Shown here: in pieces, positions 5,912-33,188 of the stretch | Position numbering within the stretch: the first letter of the stretch is position 1 | Layout of the letters: every line of letters begins with the position of its first letter | Sequence record: PP400779 | DNA length: 64,000 nucleotides | Direction: 5' to 3' (one strand) | Source: Escherichia phage JM17 | Program-made: the position numbers and the translations under genes | Notes under the pieces: model-generated | What the model was told of the DNA's origin: nothing | Database searches by the model: none | The model's input: the letters and a program-made list of their open reading frames with translations, nothing else

Positions 5912-5960
5912 TTTACAAACTCTTGAGAGCAGAGTATAATGCTCTCGTTGGATAATAAAC
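5912..5960 (+). repeat. PeSL-like promoter cassette, copy A of a duplicated ~48-bp element
   Basis: ATTTACAAACTCTTGAGAGCAGAGTATAATGCTCTC...GGATAATAAA; nearly identical copy at 33140-33188. Confidence 0.6.
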
Positions 5961-5981
5961 CACCAATTGAAAGGTAATAAT

Positions 5982-6575
5982 ATGAACACACTGAAGAAAC
6001 TTGTTGAATTCATCCGCACTAAACTGGGTACTGCTATGGCTAAAAATCTGACTGTCGAAGAACAGTATAACGCAGCTGCAGATAAGTTGATCACCCAAAT
6101 CAAAGAACTAAAAACGGCTTCTGTTAAATCTATTAATGAAGAAAAACGTATTCGCGAACTTGTTAATGAAAAGAACAAGCAAGCCGCTTCTAAGGAACGT
6201 GAAATTCGTAAGCTCCTGGCTGAAGGACAAGATGTTACTATGCATGCTAAGCTTGGTCTTCTGTATCGTCGAACCGCCGAACAACTTAATACAAAAGCTG
6301 ACGGGTATGCCGCTATGCGAATTGAAATTGCTCGTAAGGTGGTTGAACTTGATGATGCTCGTCAGAATCTGGCAATCAAACTCGAATACATTCGTGAAAC
6401 TCGAGCAGCCAATGCCCTTGGTATCTCTACGGCTGATGATGTAATTGAAATCGCTGCACTGACTAAGGTTGATATCGAAGACACTCTGACTCGTGTTGAA
6501 ACGTTCAATGGCACTCCAGCCGGCGTCGAAACCACTTCTGCTGATGTACAAGAATATATTAACTCTTTGAAATAA
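5982..6575 (+). CDS. coiled-coil protein, possibly PspA/IM30-like
   Basis: 198 aa, heptad-rich Lys/Glu/Ala composition; GAAAGG SD; family assignment tentative. Confidence 0.35.
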
Positions 6576-6584
6576 AATAATACG

Positions 6585-6608
6585 GAGGACTCCGGTCCTC
6601 CTTTTGGA
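6585..6608 (+). terminator. rho-independent terminator
   Basis: GGAGGAC-TCCG-GTCCTCC followed by TTTTGG. Confidence 0.55.
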
Positions 6609-6624
6609 TAATAAAGGAGTTAAC

Positions 6625-7041
6625 ATGCGAAACCAAAATAATGATATTGACTCAATGTTCGAAGAGTTCCGAGATAAGGTAAATCCACCTACGTCTTTAG
6701 TTGATTCATTACGATATGTTGCAACTGGACGTAAATGGTACTGGTCGTCTTCTTATGAGACCACCGAGAAAACGGCTAGCCATAGCAGAAAATCTTTATT
6801 AGCCCCAGGTATTATGATTCATGATATCGGAGCTATTGCTAAACTAGTTGCAGACCATGATATTAGATTCACTGATTTCGTTGCTCCTACATGGTCTGTT
6901 TGTTGTTTAAACACCGAATTGGAATATATCAGTGAACGTTCAGATGATTACATAGGCTTTAGAGACAAGCTTTTAAGGTCTAACATGTTTTATATTGATA
7001 CAGAAGTTCTAGTCAATAATAAAAATACTACTTCACTTTAA
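6625..7041 (+). CDS. hypothetical protein
   Basis: AAGGAG SD then ATG 6625. Confidence 0.4.
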   Translation: MRNQNNDIDSMFEEFRDKVNPPTSLVDSLRYVATGRKWYWSSSYETTEKTASHSRKSLLAPGIMIHDIGAIAKLVADHDIRFTDFVAPTWSVCCLNTELEYISERSDDYIGFRDKLLRSNMFYIDTEVLVNNKNTTSL

Positions 7042-7192
7042 TCGTCGATTCTGAAACTATGTATGAAGGCAAGCCTTTGCTTAAGAGAGTTGATGCTTTA
7101 AGTGCTATTGATGCGCTTTATGAAACTATGGTTGTTAGTCCTAATTTCACTAACAATTTAATCCTTGAGCAATTTATTAAGGAATGTAGAAA

Positions 7193-7498
7193 ATGAGTAA
7201 GATTATTGAAATTAAAGTACCAGAGTTTAATGATGCCAAATCCGCTTCAGATGCAATTTATAAACTTCTGAATCAAGCTGAACGTATCGAAGAAGAAGCA
7301 ACAAAGATCGCAGACCAATATGCCGTATCATTTTCTGTAGGTGATTATGGTAGCGGTCGTACTTATTATCCTAAGGGTGAAATCGTATCCCAGTGGATGA
7401 AAAATGAAATTGAAAATAATGGTGGCGATGTTAAGCGTGAAGGTGATGGTTACGTTATTACTGAAGGTGCTTGGGTTTCGTCTTCTGCGTTGTGCTAA
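7193..7498 (+). CDS. small protein, member 1 of tandem family ending GAWVSSSALC
   Basis: 101 aa; C-terminal G-W-V-S/A-S-S-x-x-C shared with the next two ORFs. Confidence 0.45.
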   Translation: MSKIIEIKVPEFNDAKSASDAIYKLLNQAERIEEEATKIADQYAVSFSVGDYGSGRTYYPKGEIVSQWMKNEIENNGGDVKREGDGYVITEGAWVSSSALC

Positions 7499-7507
7499 GG
7501 AATCATT

Positions 7508-7780
7508 ATGTCTAAAGAACAAACCGAACTGGCTGAAGCTGTAGCAAAAATCTATGCAGCTATTGAGGCTGCCAAAGAAATTGCTGATAAACAAAACACA
7601 ACATTCGATTTGTACCCAGCTTATGGTATGGGTGGAACCTATCATTCACCAGGACATCTTAAAGCCGATCTTGAACGTTGTACAAAAAACGGCTATGCTG
7701 AATGGGCTGACGTTTACCAATACGACTACAACCTGAGCCTCGAAACTGGTGGTTGGGTCGCATCTTCTCACACTTGCTAA
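7508..7780 (+). CDS. small protein, member 2 of tandem family ending GGWVASSHTC
   Basis: 90 aa; AAGGAA SD; conserved C-terminal motif. Confidence 0.45.
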   Translation: MSKEQTELAEAVAKIYAAIEAAKEIADKQNTTFDLYPAYGMGGTYHSPGHLKADLERCTKNGYAEWADVYQYDYNLSLETGGWVASSHTC

Positions 7781-7789
7781 GGAAACAAT

Positions 7790-7987
7790 ATGTCTCGTGA
7801 ATTAGATTGTGCTGTACGTACGGCAGTAGCTGCCCTGGAAAACCTGTTCCAAATTGCAACAGAAGAACGCGAAGAAGTTACATTATGGATTGAAGATAAC
7901 GCAGGTCTGAATCTCCAGAACGCAATCTCATTATCAAATAATAGTATTACTGTTCAAGGCTGGGTATCATCTAGTTATTCTTGCTAA
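7790..7987 (+). CDS. small protein, member 3 of tandem family ending QGWVSSSYSC
   Basis: 65 aa; AAGGAAA SD; conserved C-terminal motif. Confidence 0.45.
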   Translation: MSRELDCAVRTAVAALENLFQIATEEREEVTLWIEDNAGLNLQNAISLSNNSITVQGWVSSSYSC

Positions 7988-8049
7988 AACAGTTTACAAC
8001 AAGATAGGGCTATGTTATAGTAGTCCTATCAAATTAAATGGAGTCCACA

Positions 8050-8289
8050 ATGATTTATTACGAAAGTATTGGAACCAAAGTGGTTGCTAAAACTATTACT
8101 CGTGAAAAGTTTGCAAAGATATTCGATATGCGTTATAAAAAATCTGAACACAAAGGCATCCGATTCGAAGATGCGCACTGTACAATTTGCCCTTATAATG
8201 AAGACATAAACGGTACAATCGTTCCATTGGTAGAAGCTTCACATGATGACCTCTGGGATGAATATAATATCGCATGTCGTGAAATTTAA
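8050..8289 (+). CDS. hypothetical protein
   Basis: ATG 8050 after GGAG (alternative ATG 8038); Cys/His pairs present. Confidence 0.35.
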   Translation: MIYYESIGTKVVAKTITREKFAKIFDMRYKKSEHKGIRFEDAHCTICPYNEDINGTIVPLVEASHDDLWDEYNIACREI

Positions 8290-8317
8290 GTTAATGAATT
8301 AATCCGAGGAAAATATT

Positions 8318-9274
8318 ATGATGTTAGTTATTGGTTCTCGTGCACTTCACTATCACGGTCTTATTGATTCTAGCGCTATCAAAAATAGTGATTGGGACTT
8401 TATTGCGGACCAAGGTTCTTGGAATGCATTCAAAAATCAAATGATGGGTGTATATGTCCACCAAGATAACCCTGATGTCCAAGTTTTCAAATGCTTCCAT
8501 AATGGACGCGAAACTCATTTTGAAGCATATATTGTTCCGGCAATCACTAATGTCCGTGAATTAGTCGGTGAACTCACTCCTGAAGATTTCACGTCTTCTT
8601 ATGACCTTTTAAAATACGCCAAGAAAAATTTGACTAAAGACTGTTTGAACGGGTTTTACTGGGCAACTCCTGAGATATGTCTTGCAATTAAGATGTCTCA
8701 TCGTTTCAAGAAAAATAATCCATTCTTTTTAAAGACTATGAACCATATTCAGTATCTTCGTGGTAAAGGTGTTACACTGAACGATGAACTTACTGAAATT
8801 ATGCTGAAACGCCAGAAAGAAACCTTGAACTATGCTCACCCGGTTCTTGACACTTCTAAAAGTGCGTTCTTTAAAGATGACATCTATACATATGACCATG
8901 ATACTATTCATGAAGCCATTGCACTAACAGACCGTCCAGCGTATACATTTTATATGAAAGACGGTTCTGAAGTCATGACCTCACGAGAGAAGTTCGAATC
9001 GTTACCAGAAATGGTCAAATTGGCCGGTGTATATGAAGAATCATGTGTACTAGCATTAGAACGTTCTCAGATTCCTAATGACTTTAAAATTAACCCTGAA
9101 GCCAGTTTCATGATGGCATTGGAAAAGGTCTGTACAAGCATCACCTCCGGTTGGTTCCGTGAATACGCCTGGGAAAGCTACAGCAAAGTAGTAAGTATGT
9201 ACCAAAGTTTAGGACATGACGATTACGTCAAACGTTTCAAACAAAATTTCCATATGGTAAAACCTTTCAAATAA
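8318..9274 (+). CDS. hypothetical protein with nucleotidyltransferase-fold-like N-terminal motif
   Basis: 318 aa; VIGSRALHYHGL...SDWDF resembles the GS...DxD minimal NTase signature. Confidence 0.4.
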   Translation: MMLVIGSRALHYHGLIDSSAIKNSDWDFIADQGSWNAFKNQMMGVYVHQDNPDVQVFKCFHNGRETHFEAYIVPAITNVRELVGELTPEDFTSSYDLLKYAKKNLTKDCLNGFYWATPEICLAIKMSHRFKKNNPFFLKTMNHIQYLRGKGVTLNDELTEIMLKRQKETLNYAHPVLDTSKSAFFKDDIYTYDHDTIHEAIALTDRPAYTFYMKDGSEVMTSREKFESLPEMVKLAGVYEESCVLALERSQIPNDFKINPEASFMMALEKVCTSITSGWFREYAWESYSKVVSMYQSLGHDDYVKRFKQNFHMVKPFK

Positions 9275-9344
9275 TTTCGCAAAACTGTTTACACAATTAT
9301 AGGACTATGTTATAGTAGTCCTATTAAAACATGAGGAGAATATT

Positions 9345-9650
9345 ATGAAATTAGGCGAAACCAATCGAATCGGTCTTTTTACAATATTTGCATCACCTTT
9401 TTACGTAGCTCTTTCTGTTGCAGTATTACAAAAGGCTTACAGTATGGATGGTGTTCCTGGTTTTGTATTCTTATCACCGTTTTTATTATTCGTCGGAGCT
9501 TTGTTATTATATGCCACGACTAGTTTCGACCATAACGTTTGGGTTAATTATAAATGTAAATTGTCTGAAGAAGAACACGCAGAAGCTCGTAAAAAAGCTA
9601 TTGAATCTACCAATCTAGAAAATTTCATTAAAGAATGCCGAGGAAAATAA
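9345..9650 (+). CDS. small membrane protein
   Basis: two hydrophobic helices. Confidence 0.4.
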   Translation: MKLGETNRIGLFTIFASPFYVALSVAVLQKAYSMDGVPGFVFLSPFLLFVGALLLYATTSFDHNVWVNYKCKLSEEEHAEARKKAIESTNLENFIKECRGK

Positions 9651-9651
9651 T

Positions 9652-10338
9652 ATGAATAGTTCTAAAGTGTTTAATAGTCAAGCTCGTGCAGTAGGTGGTT
9701 TTGCTCATGCGATTAAAAACGACCAGATTAAAAACGAGCCTATGTTCTTTAACTGCGATTTGAATTTTGCTTTTGATAATGGCGGTCCAATTACTCGTAG
9801 CTTTATCCAAAATCTCCCTGACGATTGGAAAGACTCGGATGTAGTATTTGATTCACGAGTCCACATGCTGATGCCTGGTTGGTACCCTGCTATCCCAGGT
9901 TATCACCATGACGATGTACCACGCCCGGATATTCCGGTTGGTCAACACTTTATTACTGCAGGACAACCTGACTATGACAATCCTCGCTATTTGTCTGAAC
10001 ATATTCTTGGTCTTGTTAACGCTGATGTGTGTCCTACTCATTTTGCAACAGGAACTGCAGAGTTCAGTCAGATTCCTGATGGTGAACTTATCTATCGCCA
10101 GTGGCACAAAGAAGTCCTCGAAAAAATCGAAAAAGGCGAACTAGAGAAATGGGAAGCTCCAGATCGTACTCTTCTTCAGTTTGATTGGCAAACATGGCAC
10201 ACTGGTTCTCGTGCAATTAGTAACGGATGGCGTTGGTTCGGACGTGTATCTCGTAATACAGACCGAGTTAAAAAGATTACCAATGAAATTCGTGTCAATG
10301 CCCAAGTTTATCTGGAATTCCCTATGGAAGGCTGGTAA
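9652..10338 (+). CDS. hypothetical protein
   Basis: 228 aa; no motif recognised. Confidence 0.45.
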   Translation: MNSSKVFNSQARAVGGFAHAIKNDQIKNEPMFFNCDLNFAFDNGGPITRSFIQNLPDDWKDSDVVFDSRVHMLMPGWYPAIPGYHHDDVPRPDIPVGQHFITAGQPDYDNPRYLSEHILGLVNADVCPTHFATGTAEFSQIPDGELIYRQWHKEVLEKIEKGELEKWEAPDRTLLQFDWQTWHTGSRAISNGWRWFGRVSRNTDRVKKITNEIRVNAQVYLEFPMEGW

Positions 10339-10829
10339 TGATTAACAAAACATATTGGTCTAATATAGACGATGGCAACGAAGGTATTTCGTATTATTCA
10401 GTAGATTGGACAGGATGTCCATCCTACTTAGTGAAACATATTTGCCAAGAATTTAAAATCAACCAGCCAGCAGGTATTATCGTGAACAGATACATTAATG
10501 GATATCAACCTATCGATGAAGTAATACGAACAACTCAAGCTGAGCTTGAAAAGTTTTTCAATAAGTGCCAATGGATAACAGGATGGATTATATTTGTACC
10601 GTCAGTGTGGTTTTTTAGTACTAAAGTAAGTGCCTTTGCTATACTAGATATTATCGCTATCTTATTAGCATCTACTATCGTAAGTATAATTGGCGGTATA
10701 ATTGGTGGAGGTACTGTAGGCATCATTATTAATCTTGTTAAAAGTAGTTTACAAGAACGTAAAGACAAGATAAAGGCCAAGAATAATGAAGTTGAACGTT
10801 TTATTACCGAATGCAGGAATTTGAGATGA
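10338..10829 (+). CDS. membrane protein with glycine-zipper helix (IIGGIIGGGTVGIII)
   Basis: 163 aa; ATGA overlap with upstream ORF. Confidence 0.45.
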   Translation: MINKTYWSNIDDGNEGISYYSVDWTGCPSYLVKHICQEFKINQPAGIIVNRYINGYQPIDEVIRTTQAELEKFFNKCQWITGWIIFVPSVWFFSTKVSAFAILDIIAILLASTIVSIIGGIIGGGTVGIIINLVKSSLQERKDKIKAKNNEVERFITECRNLR

Positions 10830-11062
10830 GTATAGCAATTTACATTAAATCAGAATCATGTGATAGTTATCTGTACACATACGATAAAGATGTGTCAGAA
10901 GAAAAAATCAAAGACGATCTTAATATGGACCTTGATATGTTCTGTCCTATTGCAGATTACAAACTTGCGGTCTCTAATAGTGAAAGTCCATCTAAAGAAA
11001 CGCGCATTGAAGAATTTATATCTGAACTAATGGCCAAATCATGGGACCGAGATGATGAGTAA
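10826..11062 (+). CDS. hypothetical acidic protein
   Basis: ATGA overlap with upstream ORF. Confidence 0.4.
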   Translation: MSIAIYIKSESCDSYLYTYDKDVSEEKIKDDLNMDLDMFCPIADYKLAVSNSESPSKETRIEEFISELMAKSWDRDDE

Positions 11063-11510
11063 GAAAAATAAAGTGAAAGAACTATCAGCCGGTATTATTT
11101 TCCTTACCGAAGATAAAGAATTATTCATGGGGCGTGTAACTGGTTCTCGTCATAAAGGTGCATTAGCTCATCGGTGGGATATTCCTAAAGGCCGTGTCGA
11201 ACCTGGCGAATCTCCTATTGAAGCCGCTATTCGTGAATGCGAAGAAGAAACTGGGTTTACACAATATGACCCTGCCTTCCTGAAAGACCTAGGTGAACAT
11301 CATTACTCAGACAATAAGAATATTCATCTGTTCCTATATACCATCCCTGTAGAGCACGAGCAATTCAGAAACAGTGTTTGTAATTCCTATCATACATTCC
11401 CAGACGGACGACAGATTCCTGAATTTGATGCATTCGCTTTAATTAAACCTTCTCAATGGGAATATGTAATGGGCAAATCATTATATAAGGTGCTCACTAC
11501 CCTCCTATAA
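11052..11510 (+). CDS. nudE: Nudix hydrolase (T4 NudE-like)
   Basis: Nudix box GRVEPGESPIEAAIRECEEETG; located next to lysozyme gene e. Confidence 0.8.
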   Translation: MMSKKNKVKELSAGIIFLTEDKELFMGRVTGSRHKGALAHRWDIPKGRVEPGESPIEAAIRECEEETGFTQYDPAFLKDLGEHHYSDNKNIHLFLYTIPVEHEQFRNSVCNSYHTFPDGRQIPEFDAFALIKPSQWEYVMGKSLYKVLTTLL

Positions 11511-11512
11511 GT

Positions 11513-11544
11513 AATAAATACCTCCTATAAACGTGGGAGGTATT
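11513..11544 (+). promoter_or_regulatory. RBS-sequestering hairpin with embedded late-promoter-like AATAAATA upstream of gene e
   Basis: stem TACCTCC (11519-11525) / GGAGGTA (11536-11542) contains the SD GGAGG; ATG at 11545. Confidence 0.5.
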
Positions 11545-12033
11545 ATGAATATATTTGAAATGCTTCGTAATGACGAAGGTCTTAGACTGACTTTATACAA
11601 AGACACTGAAGGCTTTTGGACGATTGGCATAGGCCATTTGGTAACAAAGAACCCGTCTTTAGCCATAGCTAAAGCTGAACTTGACAGAATTATCGGACGT
11701 AAATGCAACGGTACAATTACCCTTGATGAGGCTGAAAAGCTATTTAATGAAGACGTTGATAAAGCCGTTCGCGGAATCTTGGGTAATGCTAAACTTAAAC
11801 CGGTATATGATTCTTTAGATGCGGTTCGTCGATGTGCATTGGTCAATATGGTCTTCCAAATGGGTGTAGCAGGCGTCGCCGGTTTTACTAATTCTCTTCG
11901 TATGCTTCAACAGAAACGTTGGGACGAAGCGGCAGTAAATCTAGCCCAATCTAAATGGTATCGTCAGACACCTAATCGCGCGAAACGCGTAATCTCAACA
12001 TTTAAAACAGGAACTTGGAAAGCGTATATATGA
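11545..12033 (+). CDS. e: lysozyme (endolysin, T4 gene e)
   Basis: [32 protein letters not shown]... near-identical to T4 lysozyme as recalled; catalytic E11/D20/T26 context present. Confidence 0.95.
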
Positions 12034-12311
12034 AAACATACAATGAATTTTTATCAGAATCTATTCTTAACGAAGCTACTGACACATTTGCAACTAAGCT
12101 AGGTGCAGCTTTGGTTGAAGCCGAAAGTCTATTAGCACGTATTTCTGAACTTGCTAGTAAGATAGATACTCGCAAATTTGAACGTACCAGCGATATCGCT
12201 AAGCTTGAAGCCTTGTTACGTATGTGCGATAAACCGGAAGAAATCGCTAAGAACGGCTCGCTGATGAAACAACGTCTTGAAAAATATATTTCAGGCGCTT
12301 CAGAAAAATAG
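12030..12311 (+). CDS. internal protein-like (leader [10 protein letters not shown])
   Basis: CTS-like N-terminus; ATGA overlap with the e stop codon. Confidence 0.5.
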
Positions 12312-12313: not shown

Positions 12314-12370
12314 GTTTACTTCCTCCAAGGGTTTTGATACTATACATTCATCAACTACTTGGAGGAAATT
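12314..12370 (+). promoter_or_regulatory. PeSL-like promoter: GTTTAC, TACTAT, arms TTCCTCCAAG / CTTGGAGGAA (anti-SD / SD)
   Basis: left arm lies in the promoter spacer; right arm carries the SD before ATG 12371. Confidence 0.5.
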
Positions 12371-12480
12371 ATGACCCGTCCGAAGCGTCCATTGCGATAA
12401 ATCAAGCACGCTTAGATGAAAAAATTGCTCAACGTCCGACTTGGTACAAATACTTTGGTAAATCAATTTACTAAGGAAAA

Positions 12481-12741
12481 ATGAAAATGTATCAAGAATT
12501 TATCGTTGAAGCAGATGCCAAAGGTCCTAAATTTAAAGTTAAAGCTTTCATTGGTGATGCGGAAGACTTTGGCTCATTAAAACGTAATGGGTATTCTTTC
12601 TTAGGTGGCAATGGTAAAGAAATCAACACCTATGCAAAACGTAGTGAAATTGCTTATGTTGTAGCAAGTCCTAAAGTAGATGTTGACGATATTGGATACG
12701 ATTTTAACAACTTCGGAATTATTTCTGGCGGTAAAGCTTAA
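12481..12741 (+). CDS. internal protein-like (leader MKMYQEFIVE)
   Basis: CTS-like N-terminus; AAGGAAAA SD. Confidence 0.5.
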   Translation: MKMYQEFIVEADAKGPKFKVKAFIGDAEDFGSLKRNGYSFLGGNGKEINTYAKRSEIAYVVASPKVDVDDIGYDFNNFGIISGGKA

Positions 12742-12806
12742 ATTGTTTACGCTTAAGTATTAATATGGTATATAATTACTCTATCAAAACAAACAAGGAA
12801 ACAAAA

Positions 12807-13109
12807 ATGAAAACATATCAAGAATTTATTACTGAAGCGCGAGTGAGTGCAGGTAAATTAGAAGCCGCTATAAATAAAAAGGCCCATTCATTTCATGATT
12901 TGTCCGATAAAGACCGTAAGAAACTTGTAAGCCTTTATATTGACAAAGAGCGTATTCTCGCTCTTCCTGGCGCTAATGAAGGTAAACAGGCCAAGCCTTT
13001 GAATGCTGTCGAAAAGAAAATTGATAACTTTGCTTCTAAATTCGGTATGTCTATGGATGACCTTCAGCAAGCGGCTATCGAAGCAGCTAAAGTAATTAAA
13101 GGTAAATAA
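12807..13109 (+). CDS. internal protein-like (leader MKTYQEFITE)
   Basis: CTS-like N-terminus; GTTTAC...TATAAT promoter and AAGGAAAC SD upstream. Confidence 0.55.
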   Translation: MKTYQEFITEARVSAGKLEAAINKKAHSFHDLSDKDRKKLVSLYIDKERILALPGANEGKQAKPLNAVEKKIDNFASKFGMSMDDLQQAAIEAAKVIKGK

Positions 13110-14071: not shown

Positions 14072-14434
14072 ATGAAAGCATATCAAATTCTTGAAGGTGC
14101 ACATAAAGGCACTATTTATTTTGAAGACGGTACTCAAGCCCGGATTATTGTCTCTAAGACTTTTAAAGAAGACTCTATTGTAGACCCGGAAATTTTCTAC
14201 GGTTTGAAGGCCCGTGAAATTGAAATTGAACATCAACCTAAAGTTAAAATTGAAGGTGGTCAACATCTGAACGTTAACGTTCTGCGTCGTGAAACTCTGG
14301 AAGATGCAGTTAAGCATCCGGAAAAATATCCGCAGCTGACCATCCGTGTATCTGGTTATGCAGTTCGCTTTAACTCTCTGACTCCGGAACAGCAGCGCGA
14401 CGTTATCGCTCGTACCTTTACTGAGAGTCTATAA
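14072..14434 (+). CDS. glycyl-radical cofactor protein (GrcA/YfiD-like C-terminal module) with phage-specific N-terminus
   Basis: C-terminal ~60 aa ([63 protein letters not shown]) match E. coli GrcA as recalled, glycyl radical motif RVSGY; codon usage in this segment is host-like. Confidence 0.7.
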
Positions 14435-14658
14435 TGGCTAAATTGATTATAGAAGGGTCTGAAGATGTTTTAAAATGTTTTGCCGCCTGGTTTAGTTGCT
14501 CAGGCGAGCAATCATTCACTGAAACATTTAGAATGGGTGATATTACTGGAAACTATCCGACAACTGATATCACTGTACGTGGATATGGTATTAATGAGCC
14601 TATCCAATTGGTCGAATATGACCTTGCCACTGATGAGGAAATTCCTTATGTCGATTGA
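14434..14658 (+). CDS. hypothetical protein
   Basis: TAATG overlap with upstream ORF. Confidence 0.4.
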   Translation: MAKLIIEGSEDVLKCFAAWFSCSGEQSFTETFRMGDITGNYPTTDITVRGYGINEPIQLVEYDLATDEEIPYVD

Positions 14659-15134: not shown

Positions 15135-15190
15135 TTTACTTCTCCTCTAGTTGTGTTACTATAGACCTGTCAACTAGAGGAGAAATCAAA
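15135..15190 (+). promoter_or_regulatory. PeSL-like promoter: GTTTAC, TACTAT, 12-bp arms CTCCTCTAGTTG / CAACTAGAGGAG
   Basis: -35 at 15135-15140, -10 at 15157-15162; right arm contains the SD for ATG 15191. Confidence 0.5.
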
Positions 15191-15649
15191 ATGACTATCA
15201 ATTCAGACGTTTTTATCCGCCGTAATAAACTCCGTCGAATCTTTGAAACGGAGTTCCGCAAAATAAATGCCGGTATAAAAGATGCTGCAAAGTCTCTTGG
15301 ACTACCAGGCTTTCATATCAAGTATTCTCAACATCTCTTAGATCGTGCCATCCAGAGAGAAATAGATGAGAATTACGTTTTTGAATTATTTCATAAAGTA
15401 AAAAATCATGTTAAAGAAGTTGCAGAATTTTTATCAATGCCGGCACGTCCAGATGTTGATGAAGATTTTGTCGAAGGTGTCGAATATCGCCCAGGCCGTT
15501 TAGAAATAACTGATGGAAATCTTTGGTTAGGACTTACAGTTTGTCGCGAAAATCCAGCATTCAAAATGAAGACTCTTCAATGCAGAATGGCTATTATTAA
15601 CAGTAAACGACTACCAGGAAAAGCTTCTAAAGCAGTGATTAAAATCTAG
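15191..15649 (+). CDS. hypothetical protein
   Basis: 152 aa; no motif recognised. Confidence 0.45.
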   Translation: MTINSDVFIRRNKLRRIFETEFRKINAGIKDAAKSLGLPGFHIKYSQHLLDRAIQREIDENYVFELFHKVKNHVKEVAEFLSMPARPDVDEDFVEGVEYRPGRLEITDGNLWLGLTVCRENPAFKMKTLQCRMAIINSKRLPGKASKAVIKI

Positions 15650-18023: not shown

Positions 18024-18326
18024 ATGGCCTTAAGAGCGATAGCTGTCATAGCGATGCTGGGGTTTTTTGCAGCAACAACTCCTATCGTTGGTACTGCACA
18101 TATCGACCCATATTTTGATAACTTTATGGAATCAGGGATTAAAAACGTATATACTTTGTTTGAAATTCAAAATGTTGAGAATTCTGAAAAATTCTATAAG
18201 TATATGGCAAAGCATTACAAAAATAGCCCCTGTGATGATGCATTTGAATGTCATGAACAAGGCGTAAAAACTGCCAGACAATTTGCTGAGTTCATGAAAA
18301 TAAAATTAGAGCCTACATCTATCTAA
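18024..18326 (+). CDS. secreted small protein
   Basis: N-terminal signal-like hydrophobic segment. Confidence 0.4.
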   Translation: MALRAIAVIAMLGFFAATTPIVGTAHIDPYFDNFMESGIKNVYTLFEIQNVENSEKFYKYMAKHYKNSPCDDAFECHEQGVKTARQFAEFMKIKLEPTSI

Positions 18327-18332
18327 TTTACT

Positions 18333-18363
18333 AGCCCCTTCCTTATGGTTGGGGCTTTTTGGC
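18333..18363 (+). terminator. rho-independent terminator, copy 3
   Basis: same hairpin as 4436 and 4980. Confidence 0.6.
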
Positions 18364-18427
18364 ATCTATCAGTTTACTTCTCCTCAGGTTGTGTTATAGT
18401 AGTCCTTACTTACTAGAGGAGAACGTT

Positions 18428-18821: not shown

Positions 18822-18985
18822 TTTACATCTTGGTAGGACTATGTTATAGTAGTCCTATCAAAACAAACGGAGAACAAAATGAAACTTTTGCTTATCGCTT
18901 ATGTTGTAGTACAATACAATTATCCGATGTTTACCTATAACATGGTAAACGGCATAGTGAATCTTATTGAAACGAGTATGGTAAA

Positions 18986-23269: not shown

Positions 23270-23327
23270 TTGTTTACAAGGTCTATGGTTATGTTATTAT
23301 AGACCTATCAACTACTGGAGGTAAAAC

Positions 23328-23917: not shown

Positions 23918-24913
23918 ATGAGCATTACATCTGATGCGGTAAAACATGAAATTAACGGTTTATGTGCTTCACAGATTAAAGTGTGGTTTAAAGACCATAA
24001 TGATCGCAGAGCACTTAATTATGAGCAAATTGCTATCCAAGTTCATCAATTACTGGTTAGTAAATTTGATTTTCATATGCCGTCTGAAATCTATACTAAT
24101 CTGCCGCGAGCACTTATTAAAGCGTGTAAAGGTTACGGAAAATCAATGGCTGATGGAATCTTCAGCGCGCTGAATAAACTTAACGTTCTGTCGATGATTA
24201 ACTCTAACAACATCCTGCGTAATCTAGGACGTACTGATTTGTTCGGCCGTGAACAGGGTAAAATGCCTTTGAAATGGATTGTTGCTCATCTTAACGAGAA
24301 CCAAACACGTTTTATGGCCGTAACAGCACGTTTACAAATGGGCCTAGATCGTCAGATGAACTTTAAAACTCATCCATGTTATTCAGGTTCAACAAACTTT
24401 TATAAATGTGAGCTTCAAAAGGTCGGTGGCAAAACTGTCTTAGTAGTTCGTGTAACGTTTGAAGGACGACGTCAAGGATATTTTGACATAATCGGCTCTG
24501 GCCTTAAACATTGTGGATTTATCGACGAAGTTGATATCAAGCGAGACGGCATTGGATACCGTATTGGATATGTTTGTACTCTTAAAGAAGAGATTTCAGG
24601 ACCAGCACCAGGACTAAAAGACGTTAGATATAAAGACGAGCTCGTTGAAGAAATAAAAGAAGTTGAATATGATATCAACCAAGAAGATGCTCTTAAAGAC
24701 CTTATTGATGAACTGAATCAAGACGTTATTCCGGTTCAGAAATTTGAATCAAAACATGCTGAGCAAATCAAATACTTTGAAGCTTTGATTAACGAACTTA
24801 ATGTAACTATTCAACAGACTGACGATGAAATCTCACGATTAGCAGGCTTAAACGGTAAAAATAAAACAGAACGAGCTAATCTTATTCAAGTAGTAAAACT
24901 TCTTAAGGAATGA
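23918..24913 (+). CDS. hypothetical protein with coiled-coil C-terminus
   Basis: 331 aa. Confidence 0.45.
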   Translation: MSITSDAVKHEINGLCASQIKVWFKDHNDRRALNYEQIAIQVHQLLVSKFDFHMPSEIYTNLPRALIKACKGYGKSMADGIFSALNKLNVLSMINSNNILRNLGRTDLFGREQGKMPLKWIVAHLNENQTRFMAVTARLQMGLDRQMNFKTHPCYSGSTNFYKCELQKVGGKTVLVVRVTFEGRRQGYFDIIGSGLKHCGFIDEVDIKRDGIGYRIGYVCTLKEEISGPAPGLKDVRYKDELVEEIKEVEYDINQEDALKDLIDELNQDVIPVQKFESKHAEQIKYFEALINELNVTIQQTDDEISRLAGLNGKNKTERANLIQVVKLLKE

Positions 24914-24970
24914 TGTACAACCAAGGATGGTTGGAGTATAATGAATCTATCTTAACGAGAGGAAAATATT

Positions 24971-27062: not shown

Positions 27063-27190
27063 ACCGTGGTATTCGGCTCGATGGGAGACAGTCGAGCCAG
27101 ACGTCGAAACAGTTTACAACGACGAAGAAACATGTTATGATGAGCCTTCAATAAATGAATTAATTGATATGGAAATGGGAAGAGATTATT

Positions 27191-27361
27191 ATGCAAGTTA
27201 AATTATTGTACCGTTTATTAAAAAATGGCAAGCATGATTGGTATTTGCTTATTAAAACCGATCCGAATTTTTTCTCCGGACAACCATTTACAGTTCGTCC
27301 TACTAAACGTCAGCTTCGCAAAGCTAAACGTTCTCATCGTAACTTTTATAACGTTTACTAA
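27191..27361 (+). CDS. small basic protein
   Basis: 56 aa from ATG 27191. Confidence 0.3.
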   Translation: MQVKLLYRLLKNGKHDWYLLIKTDPNFFSGQPFTVRPTKRQLRKAKRSHRNFYNVY

Positions 27362-27400
27362 ATTATAAATACCCTTATCTATTTAAGGTAAGGGTTTATC

Positions 27401-27874
27401 ATGTTATTATCAGGCGCAAAATATAAAGAAGAAAAACAAAAATTTTATGATGCACAGAATGGTAAGTGTCCTATTTGCCACCGTGAATTAGACCCTGATG
27501 TTCAAGGTAACCATCTTGACCACGACCACGAATTAAACGGGCCAAAAGCAGGTAGAGTTCGTGGGTTACTCTGTAATCTGTGCAACGCAGCAGAAGGTCA
27601 AATGAAGCATAAGTTCAACCGTTCCGGTCTTAAAGGACGTGATGTCGACTACCTCGAATGGCTTGAAGCTCTTCTTGTTTATTTGAAACAAGATTATTCT
27701 GATAATAATATCCATCCTAATTTTGTTCCAGACAAAACTAAAGAGTTCTCAAGACTAGGTAAAGAGGAAATGATGGCTGAGATGCTTCAAAGAGGATTTG
27801 AATATAATGAATCTGACACCAAAACACAGTTAATAACTTCATTTAAGAAGCAGCTTAGAAAGAGTTTAAAATGA
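27401..27874 (+). CDS. 49: endonuclease VII (Holliday junction resolvase, gp49)
   Basis: 157 aa; CPICHREL...HLDHDHE...CNLCN zinc/HNH-like motifs. Confidence 0.9.
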   Translation: MLLSGAKYKEEKQKFYDAQNGKCPICHRELDPDVQGNHLDHDHELNGPKAGRVRGLLCNLCNAAEGQMKHKFNRSGLKGRDVDYLEWLEALLVYLKQDYSDNNIHPNFVPDKTKEFSRLGKEEMMAEMLQRGFEYNESDTKTQLITSFKKQLRKSLK

Positions 27875-28692
27875 ATGTAGTATATAAACTATCATTTATT
27901 AGTAGAATTAATGCTAAAACCCCGCCATATTATTATATTGGAAGTAAAACCAATTGCACTTTTGACGGAACGAATATTATTGATAAAAATGGTAAATTTT
28001 ATTATTCGTCTTCGTCATCTTCCGAATTTCAAAAAGCTCTGTTGAAAGAAACACCGAAAGTTGAAATATTATATTTTCAATTAGTCGGAGATGAACAAAT
28101 AACTAGCATTGAAGCTGAATTTCAAAAGAATATAGAAAAAGATATATGGAATAAAGAGTATTTTAATTTAGCATATGCTAATGGTCAATTTACAACGTAT
28201 GGTGTTTCTCCTTCTAAAGAAACTAGAGAAAAGCAATCAATAACCATGATTAAAAGAAATCGTAATAAAGGTAAAAATCATGGATTTTATGGAAAGCATC
28301 ATACTAATTTAGCCAGAAAGAAAATATCAGAAGCTTCTAAAAAATACTGGAAAGAAAATCCACATCATGGATTTTCGCACACAAAGGAAGCTAAAATTAA
28401 AATTGGAATTTCATCTTCTATCAGGCATAAAGGAAGTGGAAATCCGATGTACGGCGTAAAACCTTGGAAAACTCCTAGAGCAATTAAATCTGGTACTTAT
28501 ATATTATGGTTAAAATACGCAGAAATTTTATATGATTATTTAGGTCCGGATTTTAAAAGTAAATCATCTATTTTTGCGGAGTTAAATTTACCGAAATTTA
28601 GAATTGATAATTTCATCAAAAGGTTTAAAATGGGTTGGAACCCATATTTAGACGAAGAATTTCAAAAGGATAAATTAGAATTATGTCTTTAG
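27871..28692 (+). mobile_element. free-standing GIY-YIG-type homing endonuclease gene
   Basis: VYKLSFI...YYYIGSKTN catalytic motif; NUMOD3-like repeats GKNHGFYGKHH and GSGNPMYGVKPW; AT-rich. Confidence 0.55.
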
Positions 28693-30500
28693 AGAAAGAT
28701 GTTTTAAATTTTATTTCAAATAAAGATAAAGAATTAAATACCGAAAATGCCAACAAAGATTCTCGTGTCTTTCCAACAAAAAGAGATTTAATGGCCGGTA
28801 TTGTTTCTAAACATATCGCTTGTAGTATTCTTCCGAGCCATATTGTAAATGCTCATAATGTCGGATTAATTCATTTTCACGATTTAGATTACAGTATATC
28901 ATTGCCTTTTACTAATTGCTGTTTAGTAGATTTAAAAGGAATGCTTGAGAACGGATTTAAGCTTGGTAATGCACAGATTGAAACTCCTAAATCAATTGGC
29001 GTTGCTACTGCAATTATGGCACAAATTACTGCACAGGTTGCTTCTCACCAATATGGCGGAACGACTTTTGCTAATGTAGATAAAGTACTTTCTCCTTATG
29101 TTAAACGCACCTATGCAAAACATATTGAGGATGCAGAAAAATGGCAAATCGCCGATGCGTTGAATTATGCTCAATCCAAAACAGAAAAAGATGTCTATGA
29201 CGCATTTCAAGCTTATGAGTATGAAGTAAATACTCTTTTTAGCTCAAACGGTCAAACTCCTTTTGTTACTATAACATTTGGAACAGGAACTGACTGGACT
29301 GAACGAATGATTCAGAAAGCAATTCTGAAAAATCGTATTAAAGGCCTTGGTCGTGATGGAATAACTCCTATTTTCCCTAAGCTTGTTATGTTCGTTGAAG
29401 AAGGCGTTAATCTTTATAAAGACGATCCGAATTACGACATTAAGCAACTTGCTTTAGAGTGCGCAAGCAAAAGGATGTATCCTGATATTATTTCAGCTAA
29501 GAATAATAAAGCTATCACTGGTTCATCTGTTCCTGTTTCTCCAATGGGTTGTCGTAGTTTCTTGAGTGCATGGAAAGATTCGACTGGTAATGAAATTCTT
29601 GATGGACGTAATAATCTTGGTGTTGTAACACTGAATCTTCCTCGTATTGCGTTAGATTCTTATATTGGAACACAGTTCAATGAACAGAAATTTGTTGAGC
29701 TATTTAACGAACGAATGGACCTGTGTTTTGAAGCTTTGATGTGTAGAATTAGTTCCTTAAAAGGAGTTAAAGCGACTGTTGCTCCTATTCTTTACCAAGA
29801 AGGTGCATTTGGGGTTCGTCTTAAACCTGATGACGACATAATTGAGTTATTTAAAAACGGTAGAAGTTCAGTGTCCCTAGGATACATTGGTATTCACGAA
29901 TTGAATATTCTTGTCGGTCGTGATATTGGGCAAGAAATTTTAACTAAAATGAATGCTCATCTTAAACAGTGGACTGAAAGAACCGGATTTGCTTTTAGTT
30001 TATATTCTACTCCTGCTGAAAACCTTTGTTATCGCTTCTGTAAACTTGATACAGAAAAATATGGAAGTGTAAAGGATGTCACTGATAAAGGCTGGTACAC
30101 TAACAGTTTCCATGTTTCAGTAGAAGAAAATATTACTCCGTTTGAAAAGATTTCTCGTGAAGCGCCATATCATTTCATTGCGACAGGTGGTCACATTTCT
30201 TATGTTGAACTTCCTGATATGAAAAATAACTTAAAAGGTCTTGAGGCCGTATGGGATTATGCTGCACAACATTTAGATTATTTTGGCGTTAATATGCCAG
30301 TAGATAAATGTTTTACATGCGGAAGTACCCATGAAATGACTCCTACTGAAAACGGATTTGTTTGTTCAGTTTGTGGAGAAAGTGATCCTAAAAAGATGAA
30401 CACCATAAGAAGAACATGCGGTTATTTGGGAAATCCGAACGAACGAGGATTTAATCTCGGTAAAAATAAAGAAATCATGCATAGGGTTAAACACCAATGA
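28683..30500 (+). CDS. nrdD: anaerobic ribonucleoside-triphosphate reductase (class III, NrdD)
   Basis: 605 aa; C-terminal glycyl radical motif RRTCGYLG; Cys-rich zinc site; uninterrupted (no intron). Confidence 0.95.
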   Translation: MSLEKDVLNFISNKDKELNTENANKDSRVFPTKRDLMAGIVSKHIACSILPSHIVNAHNVGLIHFHDLDYSISLPFTNCCLVDLKGMLENGFKLGNAQIETPKSIGVATAIMAQITAQVASHQYGGTTFANVDKVLSPYVKRTYAKHIEDAEKWQIADALNYAQSKTEKDVYDAFQAYEYEVNTLFSSNGQTPFVTITFGTGTDWTERMIQKAILKNRIKGLGRDGITPIFPKLVMFVEEGVNLYKDDPNYDIKQLALECASKRMYPDIISAKNNKAITGSSVPVSPMGCRSFLSAWKDSTGNEILDGRNNLGVVTLNLPRIALDSYIGTQFNEQKFVELFNERMDLCFEALMCRISSLKGVKATVAPILYQEGAFGVRLKPDDDIIELFKNGRSSVSLGYIGIHELNILVGRDIGQEILTKMNAHLKQWTERTGFAFSLYSTPAENLCYRFCKLDTEKYGSVKDVTDKGWYTNSFHVSVEENITPFEKISREAPYHFIATGGHISYVELPDMKNNLKGLEAVWDYAAQHLDYFGVNMPVDKCFTCGSTHEMTPTENGFVCSVCGESDPKKMNTIRRTCGYLGNPNERGFNLGKNKEIMHRVKHQ

Positions 30501-30967
30501 ATTATGATAGATTTTATCCTTGCGATTTTGTGAATGGCCCTGGTTGCAGGGTCGTTCTTTTCGTTACAGGTTGTTTGCATAAATGTGAAGGGTGTTATAA
30601 TAAATCAACATGGAATGCTAGAAATGGTATTCCATTCACTGGTGAAACACTAGAACAATTAATTGAATGCTTGAATAATGATTATATAGAAGGATTGACT
30701 ATAACCGGAGGAGACCCTCTCTATCCTGACAACCGAGATGTTATTCATTGCATTGCTCAAACAGTAAAAAATCTTTATCCCAATAAAAGCATTTGGTTGT
30801 GGACAGGATATAAGTTTGAAGATATTAAACAACTAGAAATGCTTAAATATGTTGATGTTATTATTGATGGGAAGTATGAGAAAAATCTTCCGACTAAAAA
30901 GCTGTGGCGAGGATCAGATAATCAGCGACTTTGGTCAAATACCGATGGGGTGTGGAAACATGATTAA
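30497..30967 (+). CDS. nrdG: anaerobic RNR activating enzyme (radical SAM, NrdG)
   Basis: radical-SAM cysteine cluster in GCLHKCEGCYN; ATGA-coupled to nrdD. Confidence 0.9.
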   Translation: MNYDRFYPCDFVNGPGCRVVLFVTGCLHKCEGCYNKSTWNARNGIPFTGETLEQLIECLNNDYIEGLTITGGDPLYPDNRDVIHCIAQTVKNLYPNKSIWLWTGYKFEDIKQLEMLKYVDVIIDGKYEKNLPTKKLWRGSDNQRLWSNTDGVWKHD

Positions 30968-31077
30968 ATTGAATTACATTATGGATACTATAAATGATAT
31001 GATTTTTCGTTTTGGTCCAGAATTTTATTCGCAATATAGTTTAGTGCTTATCAATGCTTAGTTAATTAAGGGCAAAT

Positions 31078-31293
31078 ATGTATAAATTTCGTAAAGGTTT
31101 AGCTGATTTTCTTACAACTGTAACGTTCTTTTTGTTTATGGCAGTTGGAGCTATTTTTCTTATTCCTTTTACTGGTGTATTTTTCGTGATTAGTTTAATT
31201 TCTCCAGAAAAGGGTTTATCCTCCAGCGAATTCAATGAACGTTTGGACAAAATTACTAATAAACTGAATTCTGTTCTTGATAAAAAGGCTTAA
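31078..31293 (+). CDS. small membrane protein
   Basis: two TM helices. Confidence 0.4.
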   Translation: MYKFRKGLADFLTTVTFFLFMAVGAIFLIPFTGVFFVISLISPEKGLSSSEFNERLDKITNKLNSVLDKKA

Positions 31294-31295
31294 TT

Positions 31296-31613
31296 ATGAT
31301 TAGTTTTGAGCGGTATGTAGTAGAGAGTTGGAATGGTTTTGATATGTTCGGTAATGACTATTATTTCTATGAATGTAGTCTGAACCCAAGCTTCTGGGCT
31401 GGACGTGAACAAGACCTCGAAGAAATCAACGCTCGTGCCGATTTGTTAGGTGAACTGCCTACGGTTTATTTTACCTTTGATGAATCCGGCTTCGTTATCC
31501 AGGTTTATTTTCCTGAAGAAAACTCTGGTGAGGATTCTGTTAATCCTCCTTATTGGGCTTACCAAGGAATTATTTCTCGTGGAACAAAACTCGAACTTAA
31601 AGAACAAGATTGA
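31296..31613 (+). CDS. hypothetical acidic protein
   Basis: 105 aa. Confidence 0.4.
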   Translation: MISFERYVVESWNGFDMFGNDYYFYECSLNPSFWAGREQDLEEINARADLLGELPTVYFTFDESGFVIQVYFPEENSGEDSVNPPYWAYQGIISRGTKLELKEQD

Positions 31614-31902
31614 AATTTATGGCATCCCTGAAGAAGTTGGACGTTGTCCAGGATGTTATACTGTTACAAAACTTTTAAAGGAGCTCAATGCTCCTTATAC
31701 ATTTTATAAAGTCCTCACTAATAATGGTAAGATTGAATATGACCGTCCTTTAATCGTATCTCTTGCTAAACGTGCAGGATTCACTTCACTTAATATTCGT
31801 TATCCTGTCATATTTTTAAATGATAAGAAACAAAAGAATATTGCAGAGTTTAAAAAGTCCTTGATTTCATTAGGATATGACTCTGATATCATAGAAGATT
31901 GA
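31579..31902 (+). CDS. glutaredoxin-like redoxin (NrdH-like)
   Basis: CPGC active site after KIEIYG; only in-frame ATG is 31450 inside the upstream gene, so a GTG start at 31579 is proposed (uncertain). Confidence 0.45.
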   Translation: MEQNSNLKNKIEIYGIPEEVGRCPGCYTVTKLLKELNAPYTFYKVLTNNGKIEYDRPLIVSLAKRAGFTSLNIRYPVIFLNDKKQKNIAEFKKSLISLGYDSDIIED

Positions 31903-32069
31903 CCAGGTGCCGCCTGGTCTTCTTTATCTCATTTCTAATATAATCCATTGGAATCTTCACTTCACTATCTCCTTGTGCCCCTCTCAAATCAAAAATATTT
32001 TCATAAAACCAGTTTACATCCTCGATAGATATGTTAAGATTAACACCATCTACTATAGAGGAAAATAAA

Positions 32070-32252
32070 ATGACAATTGAAGATAAAGAAATTAAGGTTG
32101 ACCAGTACTATTCGGTCAACGGTAATGCAGTACAGATAACCAAAGTTTCAAGCCTGGATGTTTGGTACCGTTCAATCAAATATCCAGAAATTGGTGAAAT
32201 GATTTGTGACCGTGGTATCTTCTGTTCAATTGCGAAGGAAATTAAGTCATGA
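32070..32252 (+). CDS. small hypothetical protein
   Basis: ATG after AGAGGAAAA. Confidence 0.35.
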   Translation: MTIEDKEIKVDQYYSVNGNAVQITKVSSLDVWYRSIKYPEIGEMICDRGIFCSIAKEIKS

Positions 32253-32497
32253 TTAGTTTAGATTCAAAGAAAGTTGTTCTAACCCTTAAAGTTAATGACG
32301 AACGTCCGGTATTCGTTACCATTTCCGATTTGCATGTTGAAATTGCTAATGACGTTCGTACTTATCAAGCAAATAAAACTCATTGGGATTATATCCCGAT
32401 GTTGACGCTTACTCAGCGTTTAGAATCAATCGGTCTTAAAGACCTTTCAGTAAGTGAAGTGAATTTTATCAAACGCGTTGTATCAATCAACCTCTGA
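32249..32497 (+). CDS. hypothetical protein
   Basis: ATGA overlap. Confidence 0.4.
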   Translation: MISLDSKKVVLTLKVNDERPVFVTISDLHVEIANDVRTYQANKTHWDYIPMLTLTQRLESIGLKDLSVSEVNFIKRVVSINL

Positions 32498-32504
32498 GGT
32501 ACTT

Positions 32505-32798
32505 ATGGGTAAAACATATCGTCGTAAAGATTTGAAAGTTCGCGATTACGACTATTTTGGTAAGCGTAAAGCTCCTGACGGTGTTAGCCACAAAGACATG
32601 GTTGAAAACATTTTCCGCTCAGATAAATGGAAACGTATGAAAGGCATTGATTCTGAAGTCAAGAATGAAATGAATCGACAACTCCGCAAAGAAGTTCGTA
32701 AGTTGAAAAAAGATGTTTACAGTAAAGAAGAGTATGATTATAATACTTCTCATACTGAAGCCAAACGTAAAGCTAACGAATGTTATCGTTACAGTTGA
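32505..32798 (+). CDS. hypothetical basic protein
   Basis: ATG after GAGG. Confidence 0.4.
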   Translation: MGKTYRRKDLKVRDYDYFGKRKAPDGVSHKDMVENIFRSDKWKRMKGIDSEVKNEMNRQLRKEVRKLKKDVYSKEEYDYNTSHTEAKRKANECYRYS

Positions 32799-32936
32799 GG
32801 AAATTATGAATATCAAACGAATGCTTTTTAAGCAGGGATTATATACTTTAAATGTTAATCCAAAGGGTGATACAACTAAATGGTCTGTAAATGACTGGAT
32901 TAAGTTCATCGATGAAAATGGGGCGTGGAACACAAA

Positions 32937-33137
32937 ATGAATCCTGAAAATATTGTGTCATGGCAACTTCGTGAAGAACGTGCCGAATTCTTTGCCAATA
33001 TGAAACTCAACGGCGTTGAGGATGAAGACTTCTTACGCTGGTTCTGGATTTACAAATACAAAGAATGCCAGTACGCTGTACTACTGACTTGTGCAGTTAT
33101 GTACGAAGGCTGGAAAGGCGCTAAAAAGTTCGGATAA
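32937..33137 (+). CDS. hypothetical protein
   Basis: ATGA overlap. Confidence 0.4.
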   Translation: MNPENIVSWQLREERAEFFANMKLNGVEDEDFLRWFWIYKYKECQYAVLLTCAVMYEGWKGAKKFG

Positions 33138-33139
33138 CG

Positions 33140-33188
33140 ATTTACAAACTCTTGAGAGCAGAGTATAATGCTCTCATTGGATAATAAA
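33140..33188 (+). repeat. PeSL-like promoter cassette, copy B of the duplicated ~48-bp element
   Basis: identical to 5912-5960 except one base (CTCTCATTGG versus CTCTCGTTGG). Confidence 0.6.

Follow-up and report, generated by a model that had tools for sequence, protein, structure and literature searches.

A repeated early-promoter cassette with an embedded hairpin and a putative RegB site in the T4-like Escherichia phage JM17

Why should two intergenic positions of one phage genome, ∼27 kb apart and in front of different genes, carry virtually the same 49 bp? The question is raised by Escherichia phage JM17 (sequence record PP400779), of which a stretch of 64,000 nucleotides was analyzed (hereafter, the window). 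It derives from a T4-like coliphage that belongs to the RB69 group, the genus Mosigvirus, and its top matches are FL18, NBG1, JM10, and mogra (97–99% identity). The repeat, ATTTACAAACTCTTGAGAGCAGAGTATAATGCTCTC(G/A)TTGGATAATAAA, lies on the + strand at 5911–5959 and 33140–33188, and the sole mismatch between the copies is G5947 (copy 1) versus A33176 (copy 2). Each copy is very probably a composite T4-like early-gene control cassette of the class known as promoter-early stem-loops (PeSLs). PeSLs are intergenic, and their early promoter is of the sigma-70 type, with TTTACW-N17-TAYWAT as the T4/PST consensus; a stem-loop often overlaps the −10 box (PMC2839356, PMC4122927). The 98% identity of the copies reflects dense functional constraint plus copying or homogenization within the Mosigvirus lineage. 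As to the constraint, few of the 49 bp lie outside the two promoter boxes, the paired arms, the purine at the start, and the RegB site. The features of the two copies are as follows.

5911–5959, + strand: cassette copy 1, 49 bp, flanked by the stop codon of an Frd3-family open reading frame (ORF) and a 197-amino acid ORF
5912–5940, + strand: promoter of copy 1, −35 box TTTACA (5912–5917), 17-nt spacer, −10 box TATAAT (5935–5940)
5924–5947, + strand: hairpin of copy 1, arms GAGAGCA (5925–5931) and TGCTCTC (5940–5946), closed by a T5924·G5947 wobble
5950–5960, + strand: RegB/S1-type site of copy 1, GGATAATAAAC, after the consensus of PMC1702504
33140–33188, + strand: cassette copy 2, 49 bp, between a 55.3-like ORF and a 55.2-like ORF
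33141–33169, + strand: promoter of copy 2, −35 box TTTACA (33141–33146), 17-nt spacer, −10 box TATAAT (33164–33169)
33153–33176, + strand: hairpin of copy 2, 8 bp, TGAGAGCA (33153–33160) paired with TGCTCTCA (33169–33176)
33179–33189, + strand: RegB/S1-type site of copy 2, GGATAATAAAA, the same 11-mer as in the T4 orf 55.2 leader

Realignment of both copies together with their flanks bore out the near-identical stretch with one mismatch that had been proposed in an initial annotation of this DNA. The position given there for copy 2 was correct, but copy 1 begins one base earlier, and the repeat measures 49 rather than 48 bp. Similarity is confined to these 49 bp and is lost at either border, where the flanks are unrelated (AAAAAATA and CCACCAA for copy 1; GGATAACG and ATAACCG for copy 2). 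As had also been claimed, each copy precedes a different ORF, the 197-amino acid ORF (copy 1) and the 55.2-like ORF (copy 2); the cassettes start 0–3 nt past a stop codon and end 22–18 nt ahead of an ATG (copies 1–2). No 49-bp match arose in 100 dinucleotide-preserving shuffles, and the search across related genomes that the initial annotation had called for found the 49-nt query in 747 phage records. Chance and an assembly artefact were ruled out by the empty shuffles and the presence of the same cassette in hundreds of public phage genomes. Among the ∼30 early-promoter-like sites on the + strand of the window, the pair is an outlier: the next-best of the 435 pairwise comparisons reached 86% identity and the median was 47%.

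The designation of the repeat as a promoter cassette was well founded. Both copies agree with the sigma-70 consensus at 11 of 12 positions, which makes them the best or joint-best match in their regions, and the −35 (ATTTAC) and −10 traits of T4-type early promoters are present. Judged from the spacing, transcription is predicted to start near G5947 (copy 1) and A33176 (copy 2), ∼7 nt past the −10 box; the predicted start base is the very G/A that distinguishes the copies, a purine in both. The early-promoter reading is supported by the homology of the cassette to the promoter of motB, a T4 early gene (PMC6070864), for which the legend to Fig 5 of PMC1702504 refers to reverse-transcriptase stops at the promoter. 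The T4 counterpart, GTTTACAAACTCTT-GGGACCA-GAGTATAA-TGGTCCC-GT-GGAGTATAAAA, has the same −35 box, spacer start, loop/−10 region, geometry, and position of the RegB site. It differs in locus and downstream gene, in two arm positions that are changed in a compensatory way, and in having GGAG where the window copies have GGAU. The motB gene of Mosigvirus has a promoter different from that of T4 motB. Apart from the cassette, a second promoter family, ATGTACA-CCAAGGATGG-...-TATAAT/TATAGT, was found at non-orthologous places, namely at 24913–24960 and 5412–5460 of the window and in front of NBG1 motB (8390–8450 of the locus examined). The NBG1 motB promoter resembles both window promoters; reuse of promoter cassettes across loci is, therefore, general.

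The −10 box is enclosed by an inverted repeat. Its 8-nt loop, GAGTATAA, is the same in both copies and includes all but the last base of the −10 box; the base that distinguishes the copies forms an eighth T:A pair in copy 2 and a T·G wobble at the same place in copy 1. Folding energies were −12.6 kcal/mol (z −3.75) for copy 1 and −13.8 kcal/mol (z −3.61) for copy 2. Conservation of the pairing was assessed in 42 sequences, 33 of them distinct, from at least six genera, with the 3′ partners slid by 1–3 columns and 500 shuffles serving as controls. Among the 33 distinct members, 96.6% of the hairpin cells showed standard pairing, compared with 37–57% when partners were slid. Changes on both sides were seen in four of the eight pairs (36 cells, a count that includes related sequences, the independent events being fewer), and one stem position displayed six pair types (GC, CG, AU, UA, GU, and UG). 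None of the 500 shuffles reached the observed pairing or covariation score, and an earlier, smaller set of 13 sequences had given the same picture. The hairpin is, thus, shown to be selected as a structure. Across the family, the −35 box, the spacer bases ACTC, the loop/−10 region, and a GGA(G/U) A-rich leader are near-invariant, and the arms of the hairpin are what varies.

Enclosure of the −10 box is a class feature of the early promoters of the window, 10 of 30 having a perfect stem of at least 6 bp around it, versus a mean of 0.5 and a maximum of 4 with shuffled flanks (500 shuffles). Examples lie at 2627–2654, 9299–9324, 18834–18857, and 23279–23306, often with the same 8-nt loop geometry (TAGGACTA-TGTTATAG-TAGTCCTA). 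Rfam yielded no family match, either for the whole window at gathering thresholds or around copy 1 at E ≤ 1. At the copy 2 locus of phage APCEc01 (476–550 of the locus examined), the 5′ arm GAGAGCA is combined with the 3′ arm TTCTCTC of another variant, which results in a C·T mismatch; this mixed-arm allele represents either an intermediate of compensatory change or a crossover within the 8-nt loop.

Immediately downstream of the hairpin, and from about +4 of the predicted transcript, both copies contain an 11-nt RegB/S1-type site, GGATAATAAA[C/A]. The RegB/S1 target comprises 11 nt of single-stranded RNA, in which GGA is followed by G (rarely U) and an A-rich heptamer, with the consensus GGAGRAYARAA (PMC1702504). 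The site of copy 2 departs from this consensus only at position 4 (U) and equals the 11-mer GGAUAAUAAAA in the leader of T4 orf 55.2, the orthologous gene, where the GGAU was reported to be cut by RegB in vivo (PMC1702504). Of 30 intergenic GGAU motifs in T4, RegB cuts only two, located at orf 55.2 and motB.2, and in RB69, one GGAU site has been mapped (PMC1702504). T4 motB RNA is a model RegB substrate (PMC1702504), and its leader, GGAGUAUAAAA, follows the homologous promoter-hairpin. Throughout the family, GGA(G/U) with an A-rich stretch is located 2–3 nt past the hairpin (33 of 33 distinct members). The window contains nine consensus RegB/S1 sites versus 1.6 expected; the others on the + strand are mostly Shine-Dalgarno sequences after early promoters. 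It also encodes RegB itself (15191–15649, + strand; PF10715, E = 6e-69), the endoribonuclease expected to cleave the leader sites of both copies.

The T4 orf 55.2 leader differs from copy 2 in that its site lies behind an intrinsic terminator, with no promoter-hairpin module. The T4 55.3/55.2 junction consists of the terminator hairpin, TTTTT, and then GGATAATAAAAT; the order of hairpin and RegB site, therefore, recurs even without a promoter. In T4 GT7 (2290–2345 of the locus examined), the terminator GGGCTTCGGCCCTTTTT occupies the slot that the promoter-hairpin has in Mosigvirus and is followed by the GGATAATAAAAT leader.

An inverted repeat centered on the −10 box could also act as DNA, be it as the palindromic site of a dimeric regulator or as a cruciform that modulates the opening of the promoter or recruits a nuclease of recombination. 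A protein bound there, or an extruded cruciform, would block RNA polymerase, and the authors who described PeSLs speculated that a DNA-binding protein might recognize the stem-loops (PMC2839356). However, the arm sequences vary freely while pairing is kept (six pair types at one position, double changes at four positions), which argues against sequence-specific recognition by a protein. Furthermore, all 16 wobbles within the stem are G·U/U·G on the sense strand (the only other mismatch is a C·T) and would be A·C mismatches on the opposite strand, which would destabilize a two-stranded cruciform. Because of these wobbles, a sense-strand RNA hairpin is favored as most likely over a duplex palindrome or cruciform, and a function as DNA appears very improbable. 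As the 5′ arm lies upstream of the predicted start, such a hairpin would form only in read-through RNA from the upstream gene, where it might merely be a terminator or attenuator, as proposed for PeSLs, with the GGAU motif behind it being incidental. Indeed, one RB49 PeSL stem-loop lowered reporter expression as much as the rrnB T1 terminator (PMC2839356), and T4 has a true terminator, GGGCTTCGGCCCTTTTT, in this very slot between 55.3 and 55.2. In the window, however, the stem is short and of moderate stability, and it is followed by (G/A)UUGGAUAAU / (G/A)TTGGATAAT instead of a U-tract, so that classical termination is unlikely; with the U-run missing and the hairpin unlisted in a terminator scan, an intrinsic terminator was ruled out. 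Moreover, the GGA(G/U) motif with its A-rich stretch is no incidental feature, as it follows the hairpin in every family member and even comes after the terminator of T4. The proposal of a mere terminator or attenuator is, thus, possible but doubtful.

As a composite control cassette, each copy would work as follows. Just after infection, host sigma-70 RNA polymerase would initiate at TTTACA-N17-TATAAT, on the distinguishing G/A. The transcript would begin with (G/A)UUGGAUAAUAAA and so present the 11-nt single-stranded RegB/S1 site from about +4. Once accumulated, phage RegB would cut GG^A and remove the triphosphate 5′ end, as suggested by identity with the mapped T4 site; the predicted cuts, GG^AUAAUAAA, fall between 5951/5952 and 33180/33181. 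In T4, RegB cuts leave a 5′-OH and, together with polynucleotide kinase and RNase E/G, speed up early mRNA decay (review PMC3014915). The cassette would, thus, provide strong expression with a built-in shut-off. In read-through RNA from the upstream gene, the hairpin would be stable and stand 2–3 nt ahead of the RegB site. There, it probably serves as an attenuator, an insulator, or a protector of the 3′ end of the upstream message; protection of that end after the RegB cut, or insulation, is plausible.

A further-reaching idea is that the cassette is a promoter-embedded RNA switch that sorts transcripts by their start. Hairpin and ACUC, present in read-through RNA only, would mask the RegB site or set its position, so that read-through and promoter-proximal messages of one gene would be handled differently by RegB, and the promoter-hairpin-RegB unit as a whole would be what is copied and homogenized between loci. 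The spacer bases ACUC, which are invariant, complement GAGU/GGA of the RegB site. For the T4 motB type, the predicted unpaired probability of the site is 0.02–0.04 in read-through RNA versus 0.99 in the primary transcript. Masking by the spacer is, thus, predicted to be strong for the T4 motB type but weak for the window copies, and such a switch is offered tentatively, as an unlikely extension of the reading as a control cassette. There is a parallel in T4, where hairpins mask the translation starts of genes e, soc, and 49 in read-through transcripts. Likewise, their structure exists only in RNA begun upstream, so that transcripts from the proximal promoter behave differently; unlike the cassette hairpin, which leaves the Shine-Dalgarno sequence uncovered, these hairpins cover the ribosome-binding site and involve late promoters. 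In several other early promoters of the window, the spacer just after the −35 box is perfectly complementary (7–14 bp) to the downstream Shine-Dalgarno region, namely at 12320–12367, 15140–15184, 18378–18423, and 56054–56097 (also 14428–14453); the ribosome-binding site would, therefore, be masked in read-through RNA only. A spacer-to-leader stem of at least 7 bp occurs in 11 of 30 promoters versus 0.75 expected, a count that includes the hairpins around the −10 box. The longest, 14 bp (TTCTCCTCTAGTTG / CAACTAGAGGAGAA), is at regB's own promoter and covers the GGAG of regB.

Several observations weigh against the composite-cassette reading. In the promoter, the extended −10 motif TGn, typical of T4 early promoters, is replaced by GAG. 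An A-rich UP-like tract is found at copy 1 only. In the leader, GGAU is generally resistant to RegB (28 of 30 motifs tested in T4; PMC1702504), and the site of copy 1 has, besides the U at position 4, a C for A at position 11. The predicted unpaired probability of GGA in the window copies, calculated in short contexts, is moderate, 0.37–0.53 in the primary transcript and 0.34–0.37 in read-through RNA. The missing U-tract and the relatedness of the sequences in the covariation set belong here as well. Finally, start site, promoter activity, and RegB cleavage are, for JM17, all deduced from the sequence.

The likeness to PeSLs extends from structure to genomic setting. In the cassette, a sigma-70-like early promoter with boxes 17 nt apart is combined with a stem-loop overlapping the −10 box, an arrangement that is among the two commonest of PeSLs. 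The AT-rich tract is clear for copy 1 (AAAAAATA) and weak for copy 2 (GGATAACG). PeSLs are found among small dispensable ORFs and are associated with indels (PMC2839356, PMC4122927). Similarly, the ORFs around the cassette are small and non-essential, and directly next to it close relatives differ by insertions, deletions, and replacements; gain, loss, or replacement of small ORFs was found at both loci (an ORF resembling RB69 ORF075c at copy 2, the upstream gene at copy 1). The phages in which PeSLs were described, however, are RB49/phi1, T4/PST, and KVP40/nt-1 and do not include the RB69 group, and promoter and terminator activity has been demonstrated for the RB49/phi1 elements only (PMC2839356). 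The RB49 stems consist of G/C runs with terminator activity, whereas the window stem is of mixed sequence and lacks a U-tract. Neither a RegB site in the cassette nor covariation of the arms is reported in the accessible parts of the PeSL papers. Separately from the two copies, the window contains three near-identical intrinsic terminators, GCCCCTTCCTTATGGTTGGGGCTTTTTGG (73–87% identical over 45 nt), at 4427–4471, 4971–5015, and 18324–18368; those at 4971 and 18324 have an early promoter within ∼25 nt, the classic terminator-plus-promoter PeSL layout.

The cassette is widespread. The complete genome of the Mosigvirus NBG1 has, besides copy 1 and copy 2, one further member ahead of ndd, three in all. 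In every Mosigvirus relative examined, a cassette is present at the loci of both copies. Homologues precede motB in the Tequatrovirus phages T4 and T2, follow pseT.2 in Dhakavirus, occur twice near ndd in Gaprivervirus and once before ndd in Kanagawavirus, and are also present in Klebsiella Marfavirus phages. The family is old and spans at least six T4-like genera, with different downstream genes (T4 motB, ndd, 55.2, and others). In the phage ATK47 record (KT184309.1), the copy 2 locus is annotated by its depositors as "direct repeat sequence1 possible binding site of StbAB," an interpretation of the cassette that differs from the present one and is probably wrong.

Where gene content differs between close relatives, the difference sets in precisely at the cassette. 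In most Mosigviruses, an additional ORF that resembles RB69 ORF075c and is flanked by two early promoters lies between 55.3 and 55.2. In JM17, PhAPEC2, mogra, and a few others, a single cassette takes the place of this ORF, and the exact copy 2 junction recurs in several phages, among them PhAPEC2, mogra, and AV113/114. In a metagenomic relative, another gene precedes copy 1, and homology starts only at TACAAAC. In the Gaprivervirus ECML-359 (1000–1505 of the locus examined), a single VR7 gp283-like ORF shortly before ndd is flanked by two family members at a distance of 412 bp; the two stems are not alike, but each is self-complementary (GGGAGCA/TGTTCCC and GGGGTCA/TGACCCC). This is the layout for which the PeSL model predicts excision of a mini-circle.

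The distribution bears on why the copies are so alike. The initial annotation had taken the identity as a sign of recent duplication or transposition, that is, of a mobile regulatory cassette recently brought to a second site of the JM17 genome. What speaks for it is that the copies are 98% identical whereas other promoter pairs of the window reach at most 86%, and that the −35 half of copy 2, ATTTACA, equals that of copy 1, unlike the copy 2 alleles of relatives (GTATACA and GTGTACA), which is compatible with a short tract of ectopic conversion. However, none of the Mosigvirus relatives inspected lacks a family member at either locus, HX01 has the stem and the "A" of copy 2 at the same locus, the exact copy 2 junction exists in several other phages, and the family is common to at least six genera. 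In addition, the copies, their flanks, and the adjoining ORFs contain no terminal repeats, target-site duplications, or transposase. A transposon or miniature inverted-repeat transposable element was ruled out, the flanks being unrelated, terminal inverted repeats and target-site duplication being absent, and the only inverted repeat being internal. A recent move within JM17 is, thus, improbable. The three Mosigvirus paralogues have arms in common (GAGAGCA/TGCTCTC), whereas the arms in front of ndd are GGGGTCA/TGACCCC and GAGGACA/TGTCCTC in Gaprivervirus and Kanagawavirus; this points to copying or gene conversion within the Mosigvirus lineage. At the copy 2 locus, HX01 has the window stem and the "A," and NBG1 and Shf125875 have a compensated stem, GAGAGA/TCTCTC. 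Copy 2 of the window combines a copy 1-like −35 region with an HX01-like 3′ part, a mosaic that is compatible with two origins, a crossover as the extra ORF was lost or a conversion tract of short length. Simple deletion between flanking promoters of the NBG1 type accounts for the origin of copy 2 only in part: the −35 region and stem differ from the NBG1 alleles, and the event may have been a deletion, an insertion, or a conversion.

The identity had also been regarded as a substrate for homologous recombination. A crossover between the copies would delete 27,229 bp, including lysozyme gene e, regB, tk, nrdD/G, and the gene for endonuclease VII. By established T4 genetics, a 27-kb deletion of this kind should be lethal; the importance of the pair, therefore, lies in providing portable homology to co-infecting genomes rather than in recombination within a single one. 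Thus, the suggestion does not apply productively to a single genome, but otherwise has merit: the breaks in gene content start at the cassette, and PeSLs are documented joints (PMC2839356, PMC4122927). Short conserved cassettes of this type also act as homology patches at which co-infecting relatives gain, lose, or exchange adjoining small genes.

The genes next to the two copies are listed below.

5684–5911: Frd3-family ORF (PF05798), upstream of copy 1
5982–6575, + strand: ORF downstream of copy 1, 197 amino acids, phrog_1203, ATG at 5982
32937–33137: T4 55.3-like ORF, upstream of copy 2
33207–33539, + strand: ORF downstream of copy 2, 110 amino acids, DUF7570, homologue of T4 gp55.2, ATG at 33207

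The neighborhood of copy 2 lies upstream of the late sigma factor gene 55. The idea that the two downstream genes have the same promoter because of a shared function found no support, the phrog_1203 and DUF7570 products being unrelated small proteins. The Frd3-family ORF, which ends exactly at copy 1, is located in the tRNA/internal-protein region, whereas in T4 it is beside frd, an example of a small gene moved between hyperplastic regions. About 1.8 kb upstream of copy 1 are two tRNA genes (3963–4036 and 4043–4116; Rfam RF00005, 54 and 72.6 bits), which correspond to tRNA-Met and tRNA-Arg as annotated in NBG1. Six small ORFs share a similar 5′ coding sequence, ATGAAAAC(A/T)TA(T/C)CAAGAATT(T/C)AT..., which translates to MKTYQEFI... 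(2301–2336, 2674–2707, 4509–4538, 12030–12059, 12477–12512, and 12803–12838); the similarity suggests that they are paralogous small early genes dispersed in the hyperplastic region.

In sum, a striking non-coding repeat can be accounted for without a new mobile element, by three known T4-like control signals within 49 bp. Relative to the literature found, covariation evidence from at least six genera for a selected sense-strand hairpin enclosing the −10 box, and a RegB/S1 site constantly 2–3 nt past it, are modest additions. For annotation, they provide a simple pattern with which early promoters and RegB sites can be marked in RB69-like phages. For the biology of these phages, the shuffling cassettes of the PeSL class would thereby be linked to RegB-dependent control of mRNA, and read-through and promoter-proximal early transcripts may be treated differently.

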